Source: Octopus vulgaris | Lineage: Eukaryota | Direction: 5' to 3' | Length of the DNA stretch: 64,000 nt | Assembly (NCBI GenBank): GCA_951406725.2 | Contig: OX597819.1 | Location: forward strand, 132,432,001-132,496,000 | Shown: positions 1 to 42,000 of the stretch, piece after piece | How the letters are laid out: the number at the start of each line of letters is the position of its first letter | Numbering within the stretch: the stretch's first letter is position 1 | The notes under the pieces: generated by a model | Database searches by the model: none | What the model saw: the letters and a program-made list of their open reading frames with translations, nothing else | Told to the model about the DNA's origin: nothing | Made by a program: the position numbers and the translations under genes

Positions 1-483
1 ACCACACCACACCACACCACACCACACAGCTCCACACCACACCACACCACACCACACCACACCACACCACACCACACCACACCACACCACACCACACCAC
101 ACCACACCACACCACACCACACCACACCACACCACACCACACCACACCACACCACACCACACCACACCACACCACACCACACCACACCACACCACACCAC
201 ACCACACCACACCACACCACACCACACCACACCACACCACACCACACCACACCACACCACACCACACCACACCACACCACACCACACCACACCACACCAC
301 ACCACACCACACCACACCACACCACACCACACCACACCACACCACACCACACCACACCACACCACACCACACCACACCACACCACACCACACCACACCAC
401 ACCACACCACACCACACCACACCACATCACATCACACCACACCACACCACATCACATCACATCACATCACATCACATCACATC
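1..483. repeat. (ACCAC)n pentanucleotide tandem repeat grading into (ATCAC)n
   Basis: Directly visible from the window start; it abuts the truncated end of the Tc1 fragment. Confidence 0.97.
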
Positions 484-1035
484 CATACCCAGCTACATTG
501 TATTCTTCTTGGGACAATTTCCTACACTCACTTAGAACATTTGCAGCTCCCGGCGAACAGTTTTTGTGGGTTCTCGGGATGGTCATTAAGCTCTGCAGTA
601 ATTTTAGGAGCTGTACTTTTGTGATCCTTTTTCTAACAATTTGCGTAAGAATCCCACGGTCCCTATCTGAAAGTTTTGGTTTTCTTCCGGAGTTTTGTTT
701 CGACGAGGAGGTTTTTCCCTCTTTCTCAAAGGTTATAATTACTTTCGAGAGAGTTCTTCTTGATACACCGAACATTTCGGCTGTTTTCGTTACGCTAGCA
801 TCTGCCATACGAGCACCTACAATTTGACCTCTTTGAAAGTCCGATAGATCTGTCATTTTAATGAATTTTAATTACCTTTTTCTAATGATTTCTGAAAAGA
901 AACAGCAATTTTAGCAAAACATATTAAACAACACTAAAAATAAATAAAAAAACATAAAAATAAACAAGCTTCTGACGGTTTTATAGATATTTCAAAATTA
1001 TGATGCTAGGTGTTTCCATATTTTGTCCAACCCTG
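484..1035 (-). mobile_element. Tc1-family DNA transposon, 5' part with TIR and frameshifted transposase N-terminus
   Basis: ORF 467..856(-) MTDLSDFQRGQIVGARMADASVTKTAEMFGVSRRTLSKV...SGRKPKLSDRDR has the paired-like HTH and GRPR-like motif of Tc1 transposases. The minus strand starts TA|CAGGGTTGGACAAAATATGGAAAC at 1037-1012, a Tc1-type TIR preceded by TA. Confidence 0.88.
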
Positions 1036-1265: not shown

Positions 1266-4235
1266 TAACTATATGTATTCACGTGCATATACATTTATAC
1301 ATATAATTCCCTTTTACAGGATTCCTCTCACAAGGCTTTGGGCAACCCGTGGCTACAAAAGAAGAATTCTGTTCAAGATTATTTCATTGGCTACTTCATC
1401 TTTTAATATGGATAGCTTAAATAGTCTCGTTGTTTAGACACAAGATTTGCGACAGTTGAATATTTTGAGTTTGCGGGCAAGAATCTTTGCCCCCAGATAG
1501 AAAACATTTTATTTCATGGCACAGCGTTTCTTCCAATCTTTGATATCTGCCTTGAAGAAAAAAAAAAAAGCAACCCAAAAACCAAGAAAAGTAAAATCTT
1601 CGTAAATCTTTGAAGAAGTAAAAGATGAAAGCGAGATATAAAATAAGCTGCTTCCCAGATATAAAATATAATTTTCTGAGAATTCATTAACCAAAAGCTG
1701 ATGTTCATAAAACTATTCTCTGAAGTTCACGTAAAATAAAGTGATCGAACGCTTGAGAGTCAATAACAACAAACTGATAATTTCCGCTGCCGAGTTGTCT
1801 AAACAAAGGGCTTCAACTCAGAGTTTGAAGATCAAAGAAAACTGCAAAATCGAATGAATTCATATTTATTTATTATCGTTTCTTTAATCCTAAATAATTT
1901 TACAAGTGTGTTAATAGAATATCGTGATCTTCATGTTGTTCTCACAATTATTAACGGCCTTATTGGAGGAGAATGAGTTGAGCGAATGAAAGAAACACCA
2001 TTACAAAGTCAGCAGATGTACCATATTTATTCTATCAAGACGTGACGATGTCATAAACGGTAAAGTTCCAAACACTTTGCGATATTTAGATACACTTTAA
2101 GCGAAAACTTCGTCAACGTGTACTTTTCCTTTCAAGTCTCTAGGGTTCATAAAATGCTGTCAGAAATATACCGGGTCCGTTCAATAACTCTGTAATCCTC
2201 ACTTTCAAAACTGTGGAATTGTACAAAATTTGAAAATAATGATTAGATGTTTATTTTACATTGTTTGTTTTGTAGACTGCAACTGGATACATTATTTAGC
2301 TCTGCTCGGGAACTAATCAATTACTTTCAAAGAAACCTCACAGTTACCAATAGAAGCATTTCTTTGAATATAAACATTTAAAATTAGGTGTGTCTACAGA
2401 ACTACAAAGAAACTTTTACTCTCATAGACACACCTATTTACGTAGGTTGTCCTCTGAGAGTAACATTGTATTTGTCTAGCAAAACAGATCTTTCGACGTC
2501 TATCTATATGTCTAACCTATATTACATAATAAAATTCCTTTTTATTCAGCTGACTTTGCTATTTTGAAAACAGAATTAGAATACAAGAGCGTTTGAATAT
2601 TGTTATTGTCAAAAGTATTCAGAATTTCATCGGATTATGGATTGTAATCTGGCTTTGACAAGAAGCAATCATTTTCTCCTTCGTTCAAGAGCATTCGTAA
2701 TTGAATACTTTCGTATTGAACGAACCAATATCAACTAATTATAATGTTAGACGACTTTTCAGTTTTTCTTCAGCTAAATCTAGACAAATCAATAGAATCT
2801 GCTGCTAATGGAAGCAGCGTGTATCAGTAATTTCTATGAGTCTTCCTTTCAAACTAATTCCAACTATTGTTGCTAATATTTTGCTTATTGGGAAGATTTT
2901 TCGAGAAACATCTTCGTCGATGCACTTCAGCAATAAAACAAAATAAAACAAAAACGAAACTAAACTCCATTCCAGTTCCATAGTTTGGAAATAGATACAA
3001 CCGAATATACGAAGGTTTCGAGCTTGTACAGCTTCGATATAATCAAATAAAGTTTATTCTTTCATATCAAAGGAAGATTTATGTCGAGTGGCGGCGGGAA
3101 ATTCTTCACGGAAGTGTTGAATGTTGCATACACCAACCACCAGAGTAACCATAAACCAGAAATATGCCTCGTGAAGTAAAACAATCACGAAGACCGGTGG
3201 ATCCGGCTGTTTTAGGCTGAATATTCCAAAGTGAAATTTTGGTTTTCCTAATATCGAAAATATTTGTCTTCTATTAATTCACATCGATTCCAAGGGGCAC
3301 AAAGCTGGCTTTTTGTTTTTTTATAAACTAAGTTTTTTTTTAATAATGAGCGAGGGAAAGTTGAAGGCTATTTACATGTTTTCAAGGTTTTGTTTATATA
3401 AATTAGATAAAACCCAGCGTAGAAGGAATTTAAACATTTAATACGAACCAAATGAGTCTCTTTGGAAAATTTCGTTTTTAATAGCTTTCGAAATGACTTT
3501 AGCTGTACAAACATCTTGTTTAAAAAACATGATGCACAAGCATACACACACACACACTTAAAAAAAACCTAACTCCACAGAATACACGTGACTGTCTGTT
3601 ATGACATATTCTAGCCTTGAGCGAGATTCTTGTTTTCGTCTTTTTTTCCCCGTGTTTAAAGGTTAAAAGTTGTATTGTAAATATGTTTTTGTGGCGGTAA
3701 TATTGTCGGTGAGAGAACTGAGCTAAATTATTTTCTACAACATCGAAGCTGTCTGCTGAGACAGGGGTGGATTCTCTGTGAACAGAATCCCATATGATGT
3801 TTCGATTTTCATTTCCAAACACTCCACTCTCGCACTGACAAGACCCCTAGCATTTCAGTTCCTAGTTCCTGTCATGCAACATTCTCCTCTATAATTAAGA
3901 GTTCATTATTTTCCGACAGTTGTCCTCAAGCGTGGTTTTTCTCTTCATTATCGAAACATAAATTTGTGTTATGTGTATTTATTTAGCCAAAGGAATCATT
4001 TGCAATCTATATTAATGTGTGCAGCTCGAAGTACAACCGAGCTACATTCAAATCACCCATCGCCTTTCTCTACTTACCTCTTAACGAAGACACCATCAAA
4101 AACATTTCGGTGCGAAGTTGTCCTTCACCGATTCTTCCCATAATTTCTTGCTATGCTTTCTTAATGATCTGGCAGACTTTAGATTTATTTTCTAAATATT
4201 GTTTAAATTTTAATGCCTTCGAAATCCTGTTTACC

Positions 4236-4623
4236 TCTATATAAAGCTGAAGTTGTCTGTGTGTCGCAGGTTTGGTAGCCTTCAACTAACACTATCTCCT
4301 TCGAGATCCTGCGGTGCAAGTTGACCAAAATTGAGAGTATGATAGAAGAAGGCTTGCTCTTCATTCTGTAGAAGATAAAATTCAAATCGGACCATGTTAA
4401 CACAAAAAATTATTTACACCAAAAAGCTGCTTTATTTTCTATGAAAATCCCTATTTTTTTACGATTTTTTGACTGCTGTGTCGCCATTTTTCGGTGTATT
4501 TCAACCAGAAAAATGTTCACTTAAAGAGAATAACAAGCTACATAATGCAAAATTTTTACTTTTCAAAAATTCCAATTCTAAAGGGTCGAAACAAACCCCA
4601 GCAACGCCGAGCAATACTACTAG
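4236..4623 (+). mobile_element. Non-autonomous Helitron-like element
   Basis: 5' TCTATATAAAGCTGAAGTTGTCTGTGTGT; 3' degenerate hairpin CCCCAGCAACGCCGAG followed by ..CTAG|T. These are Helitron TC/CTRR termini, although the upstream base is C rather than the usual A. Confidence 0.6.
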
Positions 4624-4924
4624 TTATCTTATAATTTGACATTTTAAAAAGTGACTCATGGTCTTACCTGGTATCTTTAGGATTGGCGTTTGTGAAATTT
4701 TAAAATTCCTAATTAAACTATAAAACCATTATTTACCCGTGTTAAGAATGCTTTTCCACAAAAGTTGATTTAGTTTTGGATTTAAATCTGATATTTTTGT
4801 TTGAGAAATTCAATAAAAAATTTTGGCAACTAATGCGAAAATAAATATTTTAGGGTGTTTGAATCCCTGTAAAAGTTTCAACCCAATAAAATTGACTAAT
4901 GTAGAAAGTACCGATATGCAACAT

Positions 4925-5095
4925 GTTTGCGGGTGGGATGATGGATAATTGAAGCGAACTCAGTACTTGGTTGGTTGTTTTTATTTTATGGACCCAGAAG
5001 AATATAAGTTATAGTTGACACTGGTGCAATTTGAACATGGAGTCTAACGAGTTGTAGCTAAGTGCCACGACTCCTTATGTTCGCCAACCACAATC
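4925..5095 (-). mobile_element. Highly decayed copy of the Nin-domain-like SINE
   Basis: Degenerate match to the cagtact..ttattttat.gaccc.gaag..aa.gt.gac..ggt..aatttgaac motif of the family seen at 35.3-35.8 kb. Confidence 0.45.
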
Positions 5096-7117
5096 CTTTA
5101 GCTTACTTCTACTGATGTAAAAATAAAGCGAGCTAACAAGCGGAAATCCGTTTTCCTTTCATCTAGATTACTGATAATTAGGGTAATAAAATCCATATTT
5201 TGGTCGTGGGAACACATCCTAAACCGAAGTAAATTTCACCAGAACATCTTAACAAGTCAAATATTGCTGAGAGATTGAATAAAGAGACAGAAACACAGGA
5301 AATGAAGAGGAATTCGTGATTGCACTTTATGAATAAGAAGTGATGTTTCGAAGTAGACACCATGTTCTTTGTCGGATGATTTAAATCTGAAATTATAGAA
5401 ATAACTCATAGAATTTGCTTTTATAGAATCAATATATGAGGCAAATTGTAGGAAACATTAAATTTATCGCAGAGCTCTAGTATTTCTGCCATCTTTGCAG
5501 AAACTGAATGAAGAAATCTTAGAAATACTGGAGAACCGAAACAAATGAGTTAAAAATTTAGTCTCACCCTTCGTTCCATGAACATAACACATTAATGGTG
5601 ACAGGATATAAACGATGGTCTCTTTAGCTGGTCGTCTCACGTAGAATGTCTCGGCTCTCTCCTCTGTTATCTTTAGCAATGCCTTTATACGAACAGCAAT
5701 GGTTGCTAAATATTTCACTATAAATAAATATCAAAATAGTTTACAAAAATCTATTGATCTTTCAGAGTTCATATTATCTTAGCAGATCTCAGGCAATGTT
5801 TTACTGTCTTACCTGCAGGAGATCTAATTTGATTATGGTATACAGGTACAGTTTTCGCTCAGTGATTTTTACGTTTCTAACTTTCGTTTATTGTTTCCAT
5901 AAAGACAAAAGGAAATAAAGGTTTTACATTACAACTTGTTATTTTTAGATGGTTACAATCACGTTTGAAATACTATGGCCACTAAAATATTTATAGGAAA
6001 CAAACCCCAGCGAGTCTGCCACAACTATTAAACATTGGCTCGATGCCGCCGTCTCTGTCTTTCGGCCACGGTAATGATTCGAGTTGCTTTGTTATGTATT
6101 GATCTGCCGACAGACACGACAAAAGAGTTGGAGATGTTTTGTTGAATAAAGTATTGAAATCAATAAAGTATTTTGCAAAGCTGCCGTTTGTGTTCGAAAT
6201 ATCACGTAAAACATTCACAAGTTTCTTCTAGTTGGTATTACAAAGCCACAGAGTCTCTTCCAGAACAATTCCGTAATATCTTCTCAGACTTTAATACTTC
6301 AGTTTATTTCTAGAAAAATAAAGAAATAAATTCAAACTTCCATCTTCTAAACAGAATTGAAGAAATACAAAAGACGCAAGCAACATTATTTTACTACTAA
6401 CAATAATAAAATCGATAATTTAACTTACAAGTCGCCATTTTGGTCAAATATAAGATATTTATCTCTTTATTTTGCTTCTAAATATAAAACACATAAGCTC
6501 AAATATTGGAGTATATATTTCATTCTTTGAATCCAAACCGGGATCAAATTAATAAATCCTTTTATACTCGCTGAACAGTGAGATTCGAAACGTTGACTTA
6601 TTCTTAATACATTTCGGCTGATTAGAACGCAAATATGTCAATCGCTGTTCCGTTCGCCCCAGGGAAATAGTTCCTTTACGACGAGTGTTCATCACATAAG
6701 TAATTCACTAGTAGAAAGGAATCTAGGATATCGGTGTTTCGAAATGTGTCTCCTTAGCTAGACGTAGCCGGACCAATAAATCTAAACGGGAGCTGATGGT
6801 CTTTCCTTCTTTTTAAATATCATTTTATGCTAGTTTACTCACACCTGCTCTACCAACTGAAGTATATTCTTCAGAGATCCTCTCTTACATGGCGACTCTT
6901 CTACATCACCAATTCACATCTTCACTCTTCTTATCGCTCTCATTCTTATACAAGAAAACCTACGCCTGCTCTCACTCCCACTTAATAGGGAAGCTTTCTG
7001 CTCTCAGATCTGGTATTTCTCTTACACGAAGCAATTTCACTTTCACTTTTGAGTAGCGATATATTTTAAAAATTAAATTAGAATGTTATTCGATTTCAAA
7101 CAGGTGTGTGAGACATA

Positions 7118-7290
7118 GGCGCGTGGCCTAGTGGTTAGGTGTGTTGTTCTCACAATCCTGATTTCGATTCCATGACCGAGCAGCGCGTTGTGATCTTGAG
7201 CAAGACACTTCATTTCACGTTGCCCCAGTCCGCTCAGCTGCGAGCGGGTTACCTTTCAACGGACCAGCCTGCTCACCTAGTGAGCGGGGT
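7118..7290 (+). mobile_element. tRNA-derived SINE (family A)
   Basis: A box-like GTGGCCTAGTGG, B box-like TTTCGATTCC, then TTGAGCAAGACACTT core; related minus-strand copies at 30470-30730 and 56770-56830. Confidence 0.75.
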
Positions 7291-25894: not shown

Positions 25895-26406
25895 TGTGTG
25901 TATGTGAGTGTGTGTGAGTGTGTGTGTGTATGTGTGTGTGCGTGTGTGTGTGTTTGACTTTAAACTGAATCCAATAGAGGGGCCCTGTTATGGGTTTTGA
26001 TTAGAGTGTAACCACCTCTGAGCCACTATTGTTCCTCGGTCTACTCTAATTCGGAGTTGTGGCACCTGTTAAGGCCCCAGCCGTAGGTTCACTAGTATAT
26101 GAACAAATGAGAATAAAGGGCCCCCGGCTCTTGCTAGAACTTCCTTTTAGAGGTTAAACTCGTATAAAGCACAACTAAAGTGCAGTCGGTTTCTGGTTGC
26201 CGCCGCTTATGTTGTGTCACTTTTATGAAAGCTGATTGCGCTGGAAAGTCGGTTCAGTGCTGTGCAACAATTCATCCACCCCAAAACAAATTCATACACA
26301 GAAACTGCTTGGATTCTCGGTACGTTTGCACGGTCTTCTTGAGTTTAGTAAGAGGTCTTACTTGGTCACGAAGTTGACTTTCACCATGTATGTGTGTGTG
26401 TGTGTA

Positions 26407-26438
<32 letters not shown>

Positions 26439-26475
26439 GGCAGGGTCTACATACATACATACATACATACATACA

Positions 26476-26812
26476 GTAAAGCTGGACTCATGAGTCATCT
26501 TCGTAGTCATAAAGCGAGAAAGACGAGTGACAACCTGGCCACTGGTGGTGGTGTAACACACCATACTAATCATATCTGTCGGACATGTGGAAGAGAGTGT
26601 AATTCGGCAGGAGGACTTAAACGACATGCAAAGGTACATGAAGCCCAGTTACAACTACAGCCGGCTATTACCGGTAAAGGTTTTAGTTGCCAATTCTGTA
26701 CAAGACATTGTAGATCTTTAGCTGGGCTAAAAAGTCACATTCGATCACAGCACCAATAACAGTTGAGCTTCGTGCAATGGCCATACTCGATAACGAGGGG
26801 GCAGCCATCATC
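26476..26812 (+). mobile_element. 5'-truncated LINE (RTE-like) 3' end encoding tandem C2H2 zinc fingers
   Basis: Open frame SKAGLMSHLRSH..CRTCGRECNSAGGLKRHAKVH..CQFCTRHCRSLAGLKSHIRSQH* (stop 26759), short 3'UTR, then (TATG)n; the tail is shared with 23910-23991. Confidence 0.75.
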
Positions 26813-39759: not shown

Positions 39760-42000
39760 AGCGTTCATGAGCGATCACTGGAAGCTAAACAATGGCAAGA
39801 AGTAATCTAGATACTACAAAAGAAACAATTCGAGGACTCTGCAACTTGAAAAGATCTCAAAATTCTGTTTTGAATATTTAAGGAGGAGACGTGAGGTGTA
39901 AGATGTTTGATATGAAAACGATGGATTTGGAGAAAAAAACATGAATGGTTTAGTGAGGATAAACCCATCTTCCTATCTGCAACTTATGGATCGAGAAATC
40001 CTAAAAACTTCAGGTTATGACATACGTGGTACACCTTACGAGGCCTTAAATGCAAAAATATCGCAGCAGAGAAATAAAGACCCAGAAAAATATCCAGTTT
40101 GTCTCCAAAAGCTTATGTGAGAACAATTGTTGATTATTAAAGACATAAACGAAGAGAGTAGAAGAAGACTAGTTCGGGTCTGGTGTGCATCGGCCACCAG
40201 ATGTTTTTTGATAGTCTTCTCCACATATTAATATTGGGTATATGAGCAGTAAATGAAGTAGCGACAGTAATAAATTGATATATTTAACACGTCATAAGAA
40301 AATGGTAGACACTTTTGCAGATGCAGTCAAGAAAGAAGAATATTCCAAGGCAGTTCTCTCACTTTACCTCGTTTAACTGACATGTTTAATGTGAGTGAAG
40401 GCGAATATAAAACTGTAGAAGGACCAACCATCATCTGTTGCAAACGGACGACATAAAGTTATATGCTGCAGTTGATAAATAACTAAAAGCACCGCTACAG
40501 ACAGATTACACAGATTGCAATTGATACAAAATTCAGATTAGGAAATTGTACCAAAGTAATCATGAAGAGAGGAAAATTCATTAAAATCACTGTCTTGTTA
40601 AATAAAGAAACTGAAGTTAGAGAAATAAACCAAACACTTAAGGCATAAAAAGGATATAAAAAACAACCTGAGTGAGTATAACATACAAAAATGAAGAAAG
40701 AAGATTTCAGATGTATTAGATTACTTCTTAAACCAGAGGTAGATGAAAAACAAAGAGAAGATAATAGGTATCAATAATTTAGCTGTAATAATATTCTAAA
40801 CTAGATACTAAATGAATTAGAAAAAATAGAAAGTAAAAAATGACTGTATTAAAAATAAACAATATAAATGGCAGGAAGATAATATTTATGGTGAATATAA
40901 GAAGTTTTATGCAATGAGAAAACTATTATAACGCATCCGCTGTAGAACGAGATAAATGGCTGGTTAAGCATAAAGGCAAAACTAATGGGAATAACTACAA
41001 AGCCCGAACCAAACATTAAAAAAAAGAGAAACAAAAAACTGTTTTCTGTTTTTTGTTTTTGAAAAGCAACAGATACAGAGACTGGTATCGGAATTATGTG
41101 TGATGGAGAAACACTGAGAAAATAACGAAATTGTGAAAAAGTGAATGAAGAATGTGAAGCTAAAAGTATGACAAAAAAAATCTCTCTGGAAAATAGTGAA
41201 AGTGAACGGGGTAGAAATGGAGGAAAGAGGCAGAACAGGGTGGGAAGAAAATGGAGGAAAGAGGCAGAACAGGGTGGGAAGAAAATGGAGGAAAGAGGCA
41301 GAACAGGGTGGGAAGAAAATGGAGGAAAGAGGCAGAACAGGGTGGGAAGAAAATGGAGGAAAGAGGCAGAACAGGGTGGGAAGAAAATGGAGGAAAGAGG
41401 CAGAACAGGGTGGGAAGAAAATGGAGGAAAGAGGCAGAACAGGGTGGGAAGAAAATGCAGGAAAGAGGCAGAACAGGGTGGGAAGAAAATGGAGGAAAGA
41501 GGCAGAACAGGGTGGGAAGAAAATGGAGGAAAGAGGCAGAACAGGGTGGGAAGAAAATGGAGGAAAGAGGCAGAACAGGGTGGGAAGAAAATGGAGGAAA
41601 GAGGCAGAACAGGGTGGGAAGAAAATGGAGGAAAGAGGCAGAACAGGGTGGGAAGAAAATGGAGGAAAGAGGCAGAACAGGGTGGGAAGAAAATGGAGGA
41701 AAGAGGCAGAACAGGGTGGGAAGAAAATGGAGGAAAGAGGCAGAACAGGGTGGGAAGAAAATGGAGGAAAGAGGCAGAACAGGGTGGGAAGAAAATGGAG
41801 GAAAGAGGCAGAACAGGGTGGGAAGAAAATGCAGGAATTGAAACTGAGATTGAAAGATTCTTGATTACAGAATGAAAACCTTCACTTCAGAAATTACCCA
41901 AAAGCTTTGAATTAAGGCGAATAAATAATTGCAAATTATGTAGAAATGAGGAAGAACTAATAAGCTAGATTGACTGTGACTGTCTAGGCTCAGATGAGAA

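Follow-up and report, generated by a model that had tools for sequence, protein, structure and literature searches.

A probable fossil of a RAG1-like transposase gene in the genome of Octopus vulgaris

RAG1-like (RAG1L) proteins are DDE (Asp-Asp-Glu) transposases that cut at terminal repeats by a nick-and-hairpin route and leave 5-bp duplications (PMC10462144). The closest known system to the locus described here is RAG1L family B, which is represented in the bivalves Crassostrea virginica, Modiolus philippinarum and Pinctada imbricata and in other invertebrates (Martin et al. 2020, PMC7204232). The locus occupies positions 6438-2000, on the minus strand, of a stretch of Octopus vulgaris DNA of 64,000 nucleotides (G000:C6:132432001-132496000), which is called the window throughout. 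The assembly comprises 2.8 Gb in 227 contigs, and the window is microsatellite-rich with a GC content of 36%. On the basis of the motifs it carries and their spacing, we consider the locus to be probably the dead remnant of a single RAG1L transposase gene of the family-B type that is likely still transcribed.

Invertebrate RAG1L proteins, as represented by the rows of the supplement 7 alignment of PMC7204232 that we compared, resemble the locus in the order and rough spacing of the zinc finger and of the candidate RING, RNase H block, ZnC2 site, H795 block, GPG word and catalytic Glu, and many rows begin with a short leader, as the locus does. However, the locus differs from family B in being interrupted by dozens of stops and frameshifts, in that the second catalytic Asp, the ZnH2 histidines and the CCGHC tail are unreadable, and in holding extra DNA in three intervals; a RAG2L partner, terminal repeats and a target duplication were not found there.

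The vertebrate proteins share with the locus their domain order and the E-x6-R-x-F-R spacing, but depart from it in other respects. Our vertebrate reference set comprised 121 RAG1 proteins, obtained by way of a fish RAG1 from a motif scan of metagenome contigs, with one list of homologues restricted to the best 120 of 199. (The contig carrying the fish gene, L054, represents host DNA in the metagenome collection.) The homologue lists contained vertebrates only, and scans of viral contigs, genome contigs and plasmids yielded no invertebrate RAG1L, Transib or Chapaev protein. In the zinc finger, motifs C1 and C2 are separated by 54-55 residues in 110 of the 111 vertebrate proteins in which this spacer can be measured, whereas it is 36 residues at the locus and, by hand count, 34 in the oyster and sea-urchin rows (PMC7204232). 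Moreover, the words YxID, GPG and H-x-DIN[LM], which are present in invertebrate RAG1L rows, occur in none of the 121 vertebrate proteins, and therefore the resemblance is to the invertebrate form. No vertebrate RAG1 protein gave a significant alignment to the locus.

Two further groups share parts of this architecture. Transib (HzTransib row; PDB 6pqn) has the same core class as the locus but is without the N-terminal finger (PMC7204232), and the GPG and DINL words are absent from the HzTransib row of Helicoverpa. Chapaev has an N-terminal Cys/His finger, which is the one shared with RAG1L (bioRxiv 10.64898/2026.01.24.700457), and in some cases a RING, of which the locus has a possible remnant; its target duplication is 3-4 bp long (PMC4079192). 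A preliminary description of the octopus DNA, made from its letters alone, held that an N-terminus with a RING excludes Chapaev. This argument is mistaken, given that two Chapaev subgroups carry Chapa together with RING (PMC4411706), and consequently the assignment to RAG1L rests on a core that is weakly preserved. The words of that core, compared with RAG1L and Transib rows, resemble the RAG1L rows.

Motifs of the locus and their conservation

The motifs listed in Table 1 are scattered over all three minus-strand frames, among many stops and frameshifts, and a working enzyme cannot be encoded. The preliminary description reported about ten minus-strand remnants in RAG1 order over ~4.5 kb; these are present in that order, although they exceed chance only in part, namely in the zinc finger. 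RVN, D.EE and NPMKF*ILL obtained no independent support. The same description found the first two catalytic Asp motifs not cleanly readable; the first is ambiguous, with candidates at 4064 and near 3856 (the latter in an alternative block near 3868-3830), and no clear second Asp is present, its word DEK not being found. The ZnC2/ZnH2 words LHK and EHxQ and the RING/ZDD words GVP and CPxC were not found at their predicted distances in the anchored test described below, while LCxL and H..DINL lie close to the spacing of the references.

Table 1. Coordinates of features at the octopus locus (positions in the window)
Feature	Position	Strand	Remarks
First exon, to the limit of one contig	6429..6873	-	ends with ATG 6438-6436 and 7 bases before the donor
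Old low-copy repeat, inside first exon	6550..6805	.	~40 listed matches, 66-89% identity
Intron, 119 bases, GT..AG	6310..6428	-	skipped in one X8 contig
Stretch covered by X8 with no further skip	1318..6309	-	broken at the 400-bp repeat
Degenerate zinc finger of the N-terminus (NZD/Chapa; C1, C2)	6110..6259	-	YxID at 6170 in neighbouring frame
RLCG	6256-6245	-	
H-x4-C-x2-C	6136-6110	-	same frame as RLCG, one stop between
Possible C3 motif, F-x-x-H-S-I	5969..5986	-	in C1/C2 frame; lies 11-18 codons nearer in the references; seen by eye only
Possible RING remnant, K-C-x-H-x-F	5310..5364	-	G-V-x-F upstream in another frame; C-x-H-x-F is the rank 2 site
C-x-H-x-F	5324-5310	-	
RVN	4739	-	
Young high-copy interspersed repeat, 400 bp	~4235..4634	.	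at least 41 other matches at 93-95% identity; 3230 candidates
First catalytic Asp block, candidate	4038..4106	-	GDG at 4064 overlaps AMGDL at 4063, next frame; ambiguous
D.EE	3952	-	D.EE...G of the preliminary description absent in exact form; G further along
Candidate RNase H block, KIE..GI.FTE..P.S	3752..3812	-	best site of the region for its motif; by-eye match to Mph/Cvi rows
MKI	3812	-	
LFTENP	3785-3768	-	
LCxL, candidate ZnC2 site	3291..3302	-	distance before DINL in text
Candidate H795 block: H, one-base slip, DINL	3074..3102	-	invertebrate form
DINL	3085-3074	-	
NPMKF*ILL	2636-2610	-	
NGPG and candidate third catalytic Glu (E-x6-RSFR)	2101..2181	-	Glu 15 codons after GPG start, same frame
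E-x6-RSFR	2133-2101	-	
Possible C-terminal remnants (TS-x-x-L-like, C-x-L-C)	2000..2057	-	by eye; nearer Glu than in references

The N-terminal zinc finger is the only unit that stood out when the motifs were split into rigid units. Its C1 and C2 pair scores 26.4 bits, a value reached by none of 200 shuffles and none of 118 natural windows, and in a larger control the pair lay above all 400 shuffles. When a fixed background is used, one of 117 natural windows attains the score (at a repeat beside a microsatellite), and the finger combined with the RING is equalled in none of the 117. The finger is nonetheless degenerate, and ranks at about the top 1% of natural 5-kb windows. In the larger control one of 117 natural windows exceeded it, at 40 bits, but this was a composition artefact of a 3-kb CTT array.

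Evidence that extends into the core comes from an anchored test, in which five positions derived from the preliminary description (6136, 5324, 3782, 3085 and 2133) were held fixed. The test used 27 short words that are conserved in most invertebrate rows near these anchors, none of which was among the motifs previously described. Three of the 27 lie at the predicted distance, compared with a shuffle mean of 0.10: YxID (-11.3 codons, with -12 predicted), LCxL (-72.3, with -74 predicted) and GPG (-15, with -13 predicted), GPG also sharing its frame with the candidate Glu. None of 1000 shuffles, none of 384 overlapping natural windows and none of 32 shifted anchors attained three matches, whereas 2 of 1000 shuffles did so at the loosest tolerance, but these figures flatter the locus because the matches had been spotted by eye before the list, itself chosen by hand, was written. 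With core words only, 2 of 23 were matched, a result equalled by 6 of 1500 shuffles.

First exon, setting and history of the locus

The locus appears to retain a first coding exon. In sequencing run X8 (87 million letters, with the type of run not on record), one contig with a depth of 9 joins position 6429 to 6309 and omits the 119 bases between them, which is best read as splicing, seen in one contig of one run. Removal of this intron places the ATG at 6438-6436, at which the span of the preliminary description begins on the minus strand, in frame with the zinc finger. It then lies 21 codons ahead of the R of RLCG, and three stops intervene. The intron is unskipped in run X15, and run X11 covers 6354-7199 without a skip. 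The intron would be the element's own, and the short leader that results is like those of many invertebrate rows. Another possible intron, at 4077-3889, was rejected, as X8 does not skip it.

At the opposite end, a GTAA donor-like site (1317-1314) coincides with the edge of an X8 contig and with 28 unplaced letters, which suggests a further exon beyond 1318 whose position was not located. The X8 contig over 1318-4262 (2975 bases) has a depth of 160, compared with about 10 upstream of the 400-bp repeat, and this jump may reflect a second start or acceptor at the repeat, although contig depth can neither rank expression nor show a second start. No run classed as RNA was among those with a large share of the locus in the 24 listed; X18-X20, which are probably RNA, have small shares, and X17 covers little of it.

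The locus is present in related organisms, four runs having been compared in detail there. Among the 24 listed runs, 11, assigned to organisms A-D, hold at least 0.68 (0.68-0.96) of the words of 1800-4230, while three runs of organism E hold 0.20 of them. In organism E (X15) the locus is present but differs at 125 letters over 1267-3526 and at 132 over 4805-7214, or ~5.5%. Row by row, this comparison covered 40 out of 359 differences and 12 out of 32 indels. Because the decay is far deeper than this distance, we infer that the fossil is much older than the split from organism E.

The preliminary description overlooked both the intron at 6428-6310 and a 400-bp repeat (~4235-4634) that splits the fossil. 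This repeat is absent from organism E, where the flanks meet at a joint (4223-4624) with 69 other letters. A short hairpin, rich in GC, lies close to one of its ends and the opposite end is AT-rich; it may be Helitron-like. The older repeat within the first exon (6550-6805), which has no Pfam match, may be Penelope-like. It was also considered as a terminal inverted repeat of the element, and rejected.

With these observations in mind, the following history can be proposed. A cut-and-paste element of the Transib/RAG group, with a DDE core, an N-terminal zinc finger, a RING as in bivalves and a short first coding exon, would have inserted once, before the split of the related species that now hold the locus. 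Mobility would then have been lost while stops, frameshifts and insertions accumulated, the 400-bp repeat being the latest, and the first exon and intron likely survive within a spliced non-coding transcript.

Searches of the same genome for a second copy of the locus (minus its inserted repeats) returned none at either the DNA or the protein level, and the less decayed copies for which the preliminary description advised a search were thus not found, although such searches set floors only. A protein search for paralogues gave four weak matches, apparently unrelated, and two motif patterns gave none. A strict search found no member of family PF12940, but its controls gave no match either. Rfam also gave no match to the locus. 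No host gene was found nearby: the 96 open frames examined, which came from 70 kb downstream and from the remainder of the window, matched nothing but transposons, retroelements and, weakly, zinc fingers.

Several other elements lie in the surroundings. The front part of a Tc1-type transposase with helix-turn-helix matches lies at 470-871 (minus strand) and is truncated by an ACCAC array, and at L064:3439-4469 (plus strand) there is a transposase of the Tc1 family that is still fairly young and is split between two frames, with matches to the Pfam entries HTH_Tnp_Tc3_2, HTH_SB and DDE_3. An open frame at 26352-26756 (plus strand) with C2H2-like zinc fingers, supported by weak Pfam matches, is probably the end of a long interspersed nuclear element. 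A 34-base minisatellite of 18 copies, 99% alike, occupies 41215-41837, and a CTT array of ~3 kb (L085) precedes the window by ~25-28 kb.

Assessment of the family assignment and its rivals

A number of results count against a RAG1L origin. Taken singly, the listed motifs are at chance level. Four core-motif units score no higher than shuffled sequence (the observed scores were reached by 33, 45, 27 and 155 of 200 shuffles), and 13 functional-site motifs chained in order gave z values of 1.9-2.7 when compared with 300 shuffles, values that 6-62 of 148 natural windows matched. The order of the best sites of ten core motifs is likewise no better than chance (40-91 of 150 shuffles), and the site chosen for the H795 block ranks below a fortuitous resemblance at 4028. 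By extrapolation from a Gumbel fit, even the zinc finger would find about 0.2-0.5 matches of its score per 64 kb. In the anchored test 24 of the 27 words were missed, including DEK (second Asp), PGN, YAR, LHK and WLY, which is consistent with deep decay yet limits the claim, and without LCxL, whose wording is our own, the core words fall to 1 of 22, equalled by 100 of 1500 shuffles. The tail Cx2Cx3GHx4C, a RAG1L feature (PMC7204232), was sought and only C-x-L-C was found, at 2014, where it ranks 16-39, lies outside tolerance and lacks GH. Three motif intervals hold ~155, 225 and 275-360 extra bases relative to oyster spacing by hand count, which old introns or insertions would explain. Within the extra DNA of the core, at 2404-2475, lies a 33-base inverted repeat (73% complementary, 6-base loop) of which no second copy was found. 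Depletion of stops was uninformative, the signal from the minus strand being no stronger than that from the plus strand or from flanking DNA.

Library searches were equally unhelpful to the assignment. Pfam, which the preliminary description had recommended for its RAG1 models, gave nothing relevant with six frames and 25 short pieces (single frames, with stops as X), nor did PDB with five pieces, although it contains amphioxus RAG1L, nor phmmer with one frame of 1168 residues (5405-1902) against 1.84 billion representative proteins. With vertebrate RAG1, tblastn left the locus undetected. A frameshift-aware alignment scored 74, compared with 61 +/- 7 (maximum 78) for shuffles, which is in part the outcome that the preliminary description had named as refuting its claim. 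A vertebrate RAG1 profile gave z values of -1.1 to 0.7 across ten settings. A codon-aware version placed itself on the MGD site (~4060) and FTENP, but not significantly, its score being equalled by 4-9 of 60 shuffles and 49-54 of 65 natural windows. The transposon context is also missing. No RAG2 or kelch family member was found in six frames of 481-1922 and 9 kb of the neighbouring stretch L063, where an equally decayed gene would escape. Terminal repeats starting with CAC were matched 3 times in the window against 6.7 expected, and once in L063 against 1.2. No fitting inverted pair occurs among the 25 longest listed, and a 5-bp target duplication was not found.

Given these empty searches and the null-level core tests, the locus might be no more than ordinary AT-rich sequence, unique in the genome and part of a long non-coding exon, in which a search over three frames happened upon words resembling RAG1, and the lower figure of ~0.2 zinc-finger-like matches per 64 kb leaves room for such an accident. 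The anchored test, unequalled in 1000 shuffles and 384 natural windows, the invertebrate length of the spacer and the spliced, in-frame ATG speak against chance, even though we estimate that an in-frame ATG near the donor would arise in ~30% of cases, and overall we regard an accidental likeness as unlikely. The locus could instead descend from some other finger-bearing relative, such as a Chapaev with Chapa and RING, N-RAG-TP or an unnamed RAG1-like family, with core words that reflect chance or shared ancestry. The part with the best support is precisely the N-terminal finger that Chapaev has in common with RAG1L (bioRxiv 10.64898/2026.01.24.700457), the RING is likewise found in two of its subgroups (PMC4411706), and the core is weak. 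GPG before the Glu, DINL and FTE..P.S nevertheless agree with RAG1L rows, GPG and DINL being absent from the Transib row of Helicoverpa, and we judge a different family to be quite unlikely.

A once-domesticated host gene derived from RAG1L and later reduced to a pseudogene, rather than a transposon copy that was dead on arrival, is in our view highly improbable. Domesticated RAG1L has been reported in sea urchins (PMC9885083), and the octopus locus is apparently still spliced while a second copy, terminal repeats and RAG2L were not found. However, a genome usually has a single copy or a few copies of an autonomous Transib-type element, and the ends of old copies are lost (PMC4411706), so these features do not separate the two cases, and no intact orthologue was seen. 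A RAG1L fossil, as proposed in the preliminary description, is still the best reading, with YxID, LCxL and GPG where they are predicted to be, albeit on weaker grounds than those originally offered.

Implications for the distribution of RAG-like elements

In Martin et al. 2020 (PMC7204232), molluscan RAG-like (RAGL) elements are reported only from pteriomorph bivalves; an octopus genome and cephalopod transcriptomes appear in its list of screened data (supplement 6), while cephalopods are unmentioned in its text. They are also unmentioned in Martin et al. 2023. Tao et al. 2022, which covers 173 species, names no cephalopod in its text or supplement text, its distribution Figure S1 being a picture and outside this statement, and the text of a 2026 octopus repeat annotation (PMC13282606) contains no RAG or Transib term. 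In keeping with the preliminary description, we found no paper describing a cephalopod RAG1L, in a survey to which subscription journals and Repbase were external.

New in the present report are the spliced GT-AG intron that brings ATG 6438 into frame, the occurrence of the locus in related species, and the young 400-bp repeat that splits it. A fuller picture, which we advance only tentatively and hold with somewhat less than even confidence, is that the locus is the first RAG1L from a cephalopod, an ancient element of family B that had a RING and became fixed in octopods. Its own first coding exon and intron would then still be in use, and the dead gene would have turned into a non-coding transcript that is spliced from several exons.

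The recombinase of antibody genes derives from RAGL elements, and the question of their vertical descent from a bilaterian ancestor depends on how widely they are spread. As a dead copy, the octopus locus offers no new mechanism, and its value lies in distribution and dating. If the assignment is correct, a second mollusc class would carry RAGL and cephalopods would be added to the range of the family. Furthermore, a fossil that lies below tblastn detection would mean that reports of RAGL as 'not found' in cephalopods reflect decay.

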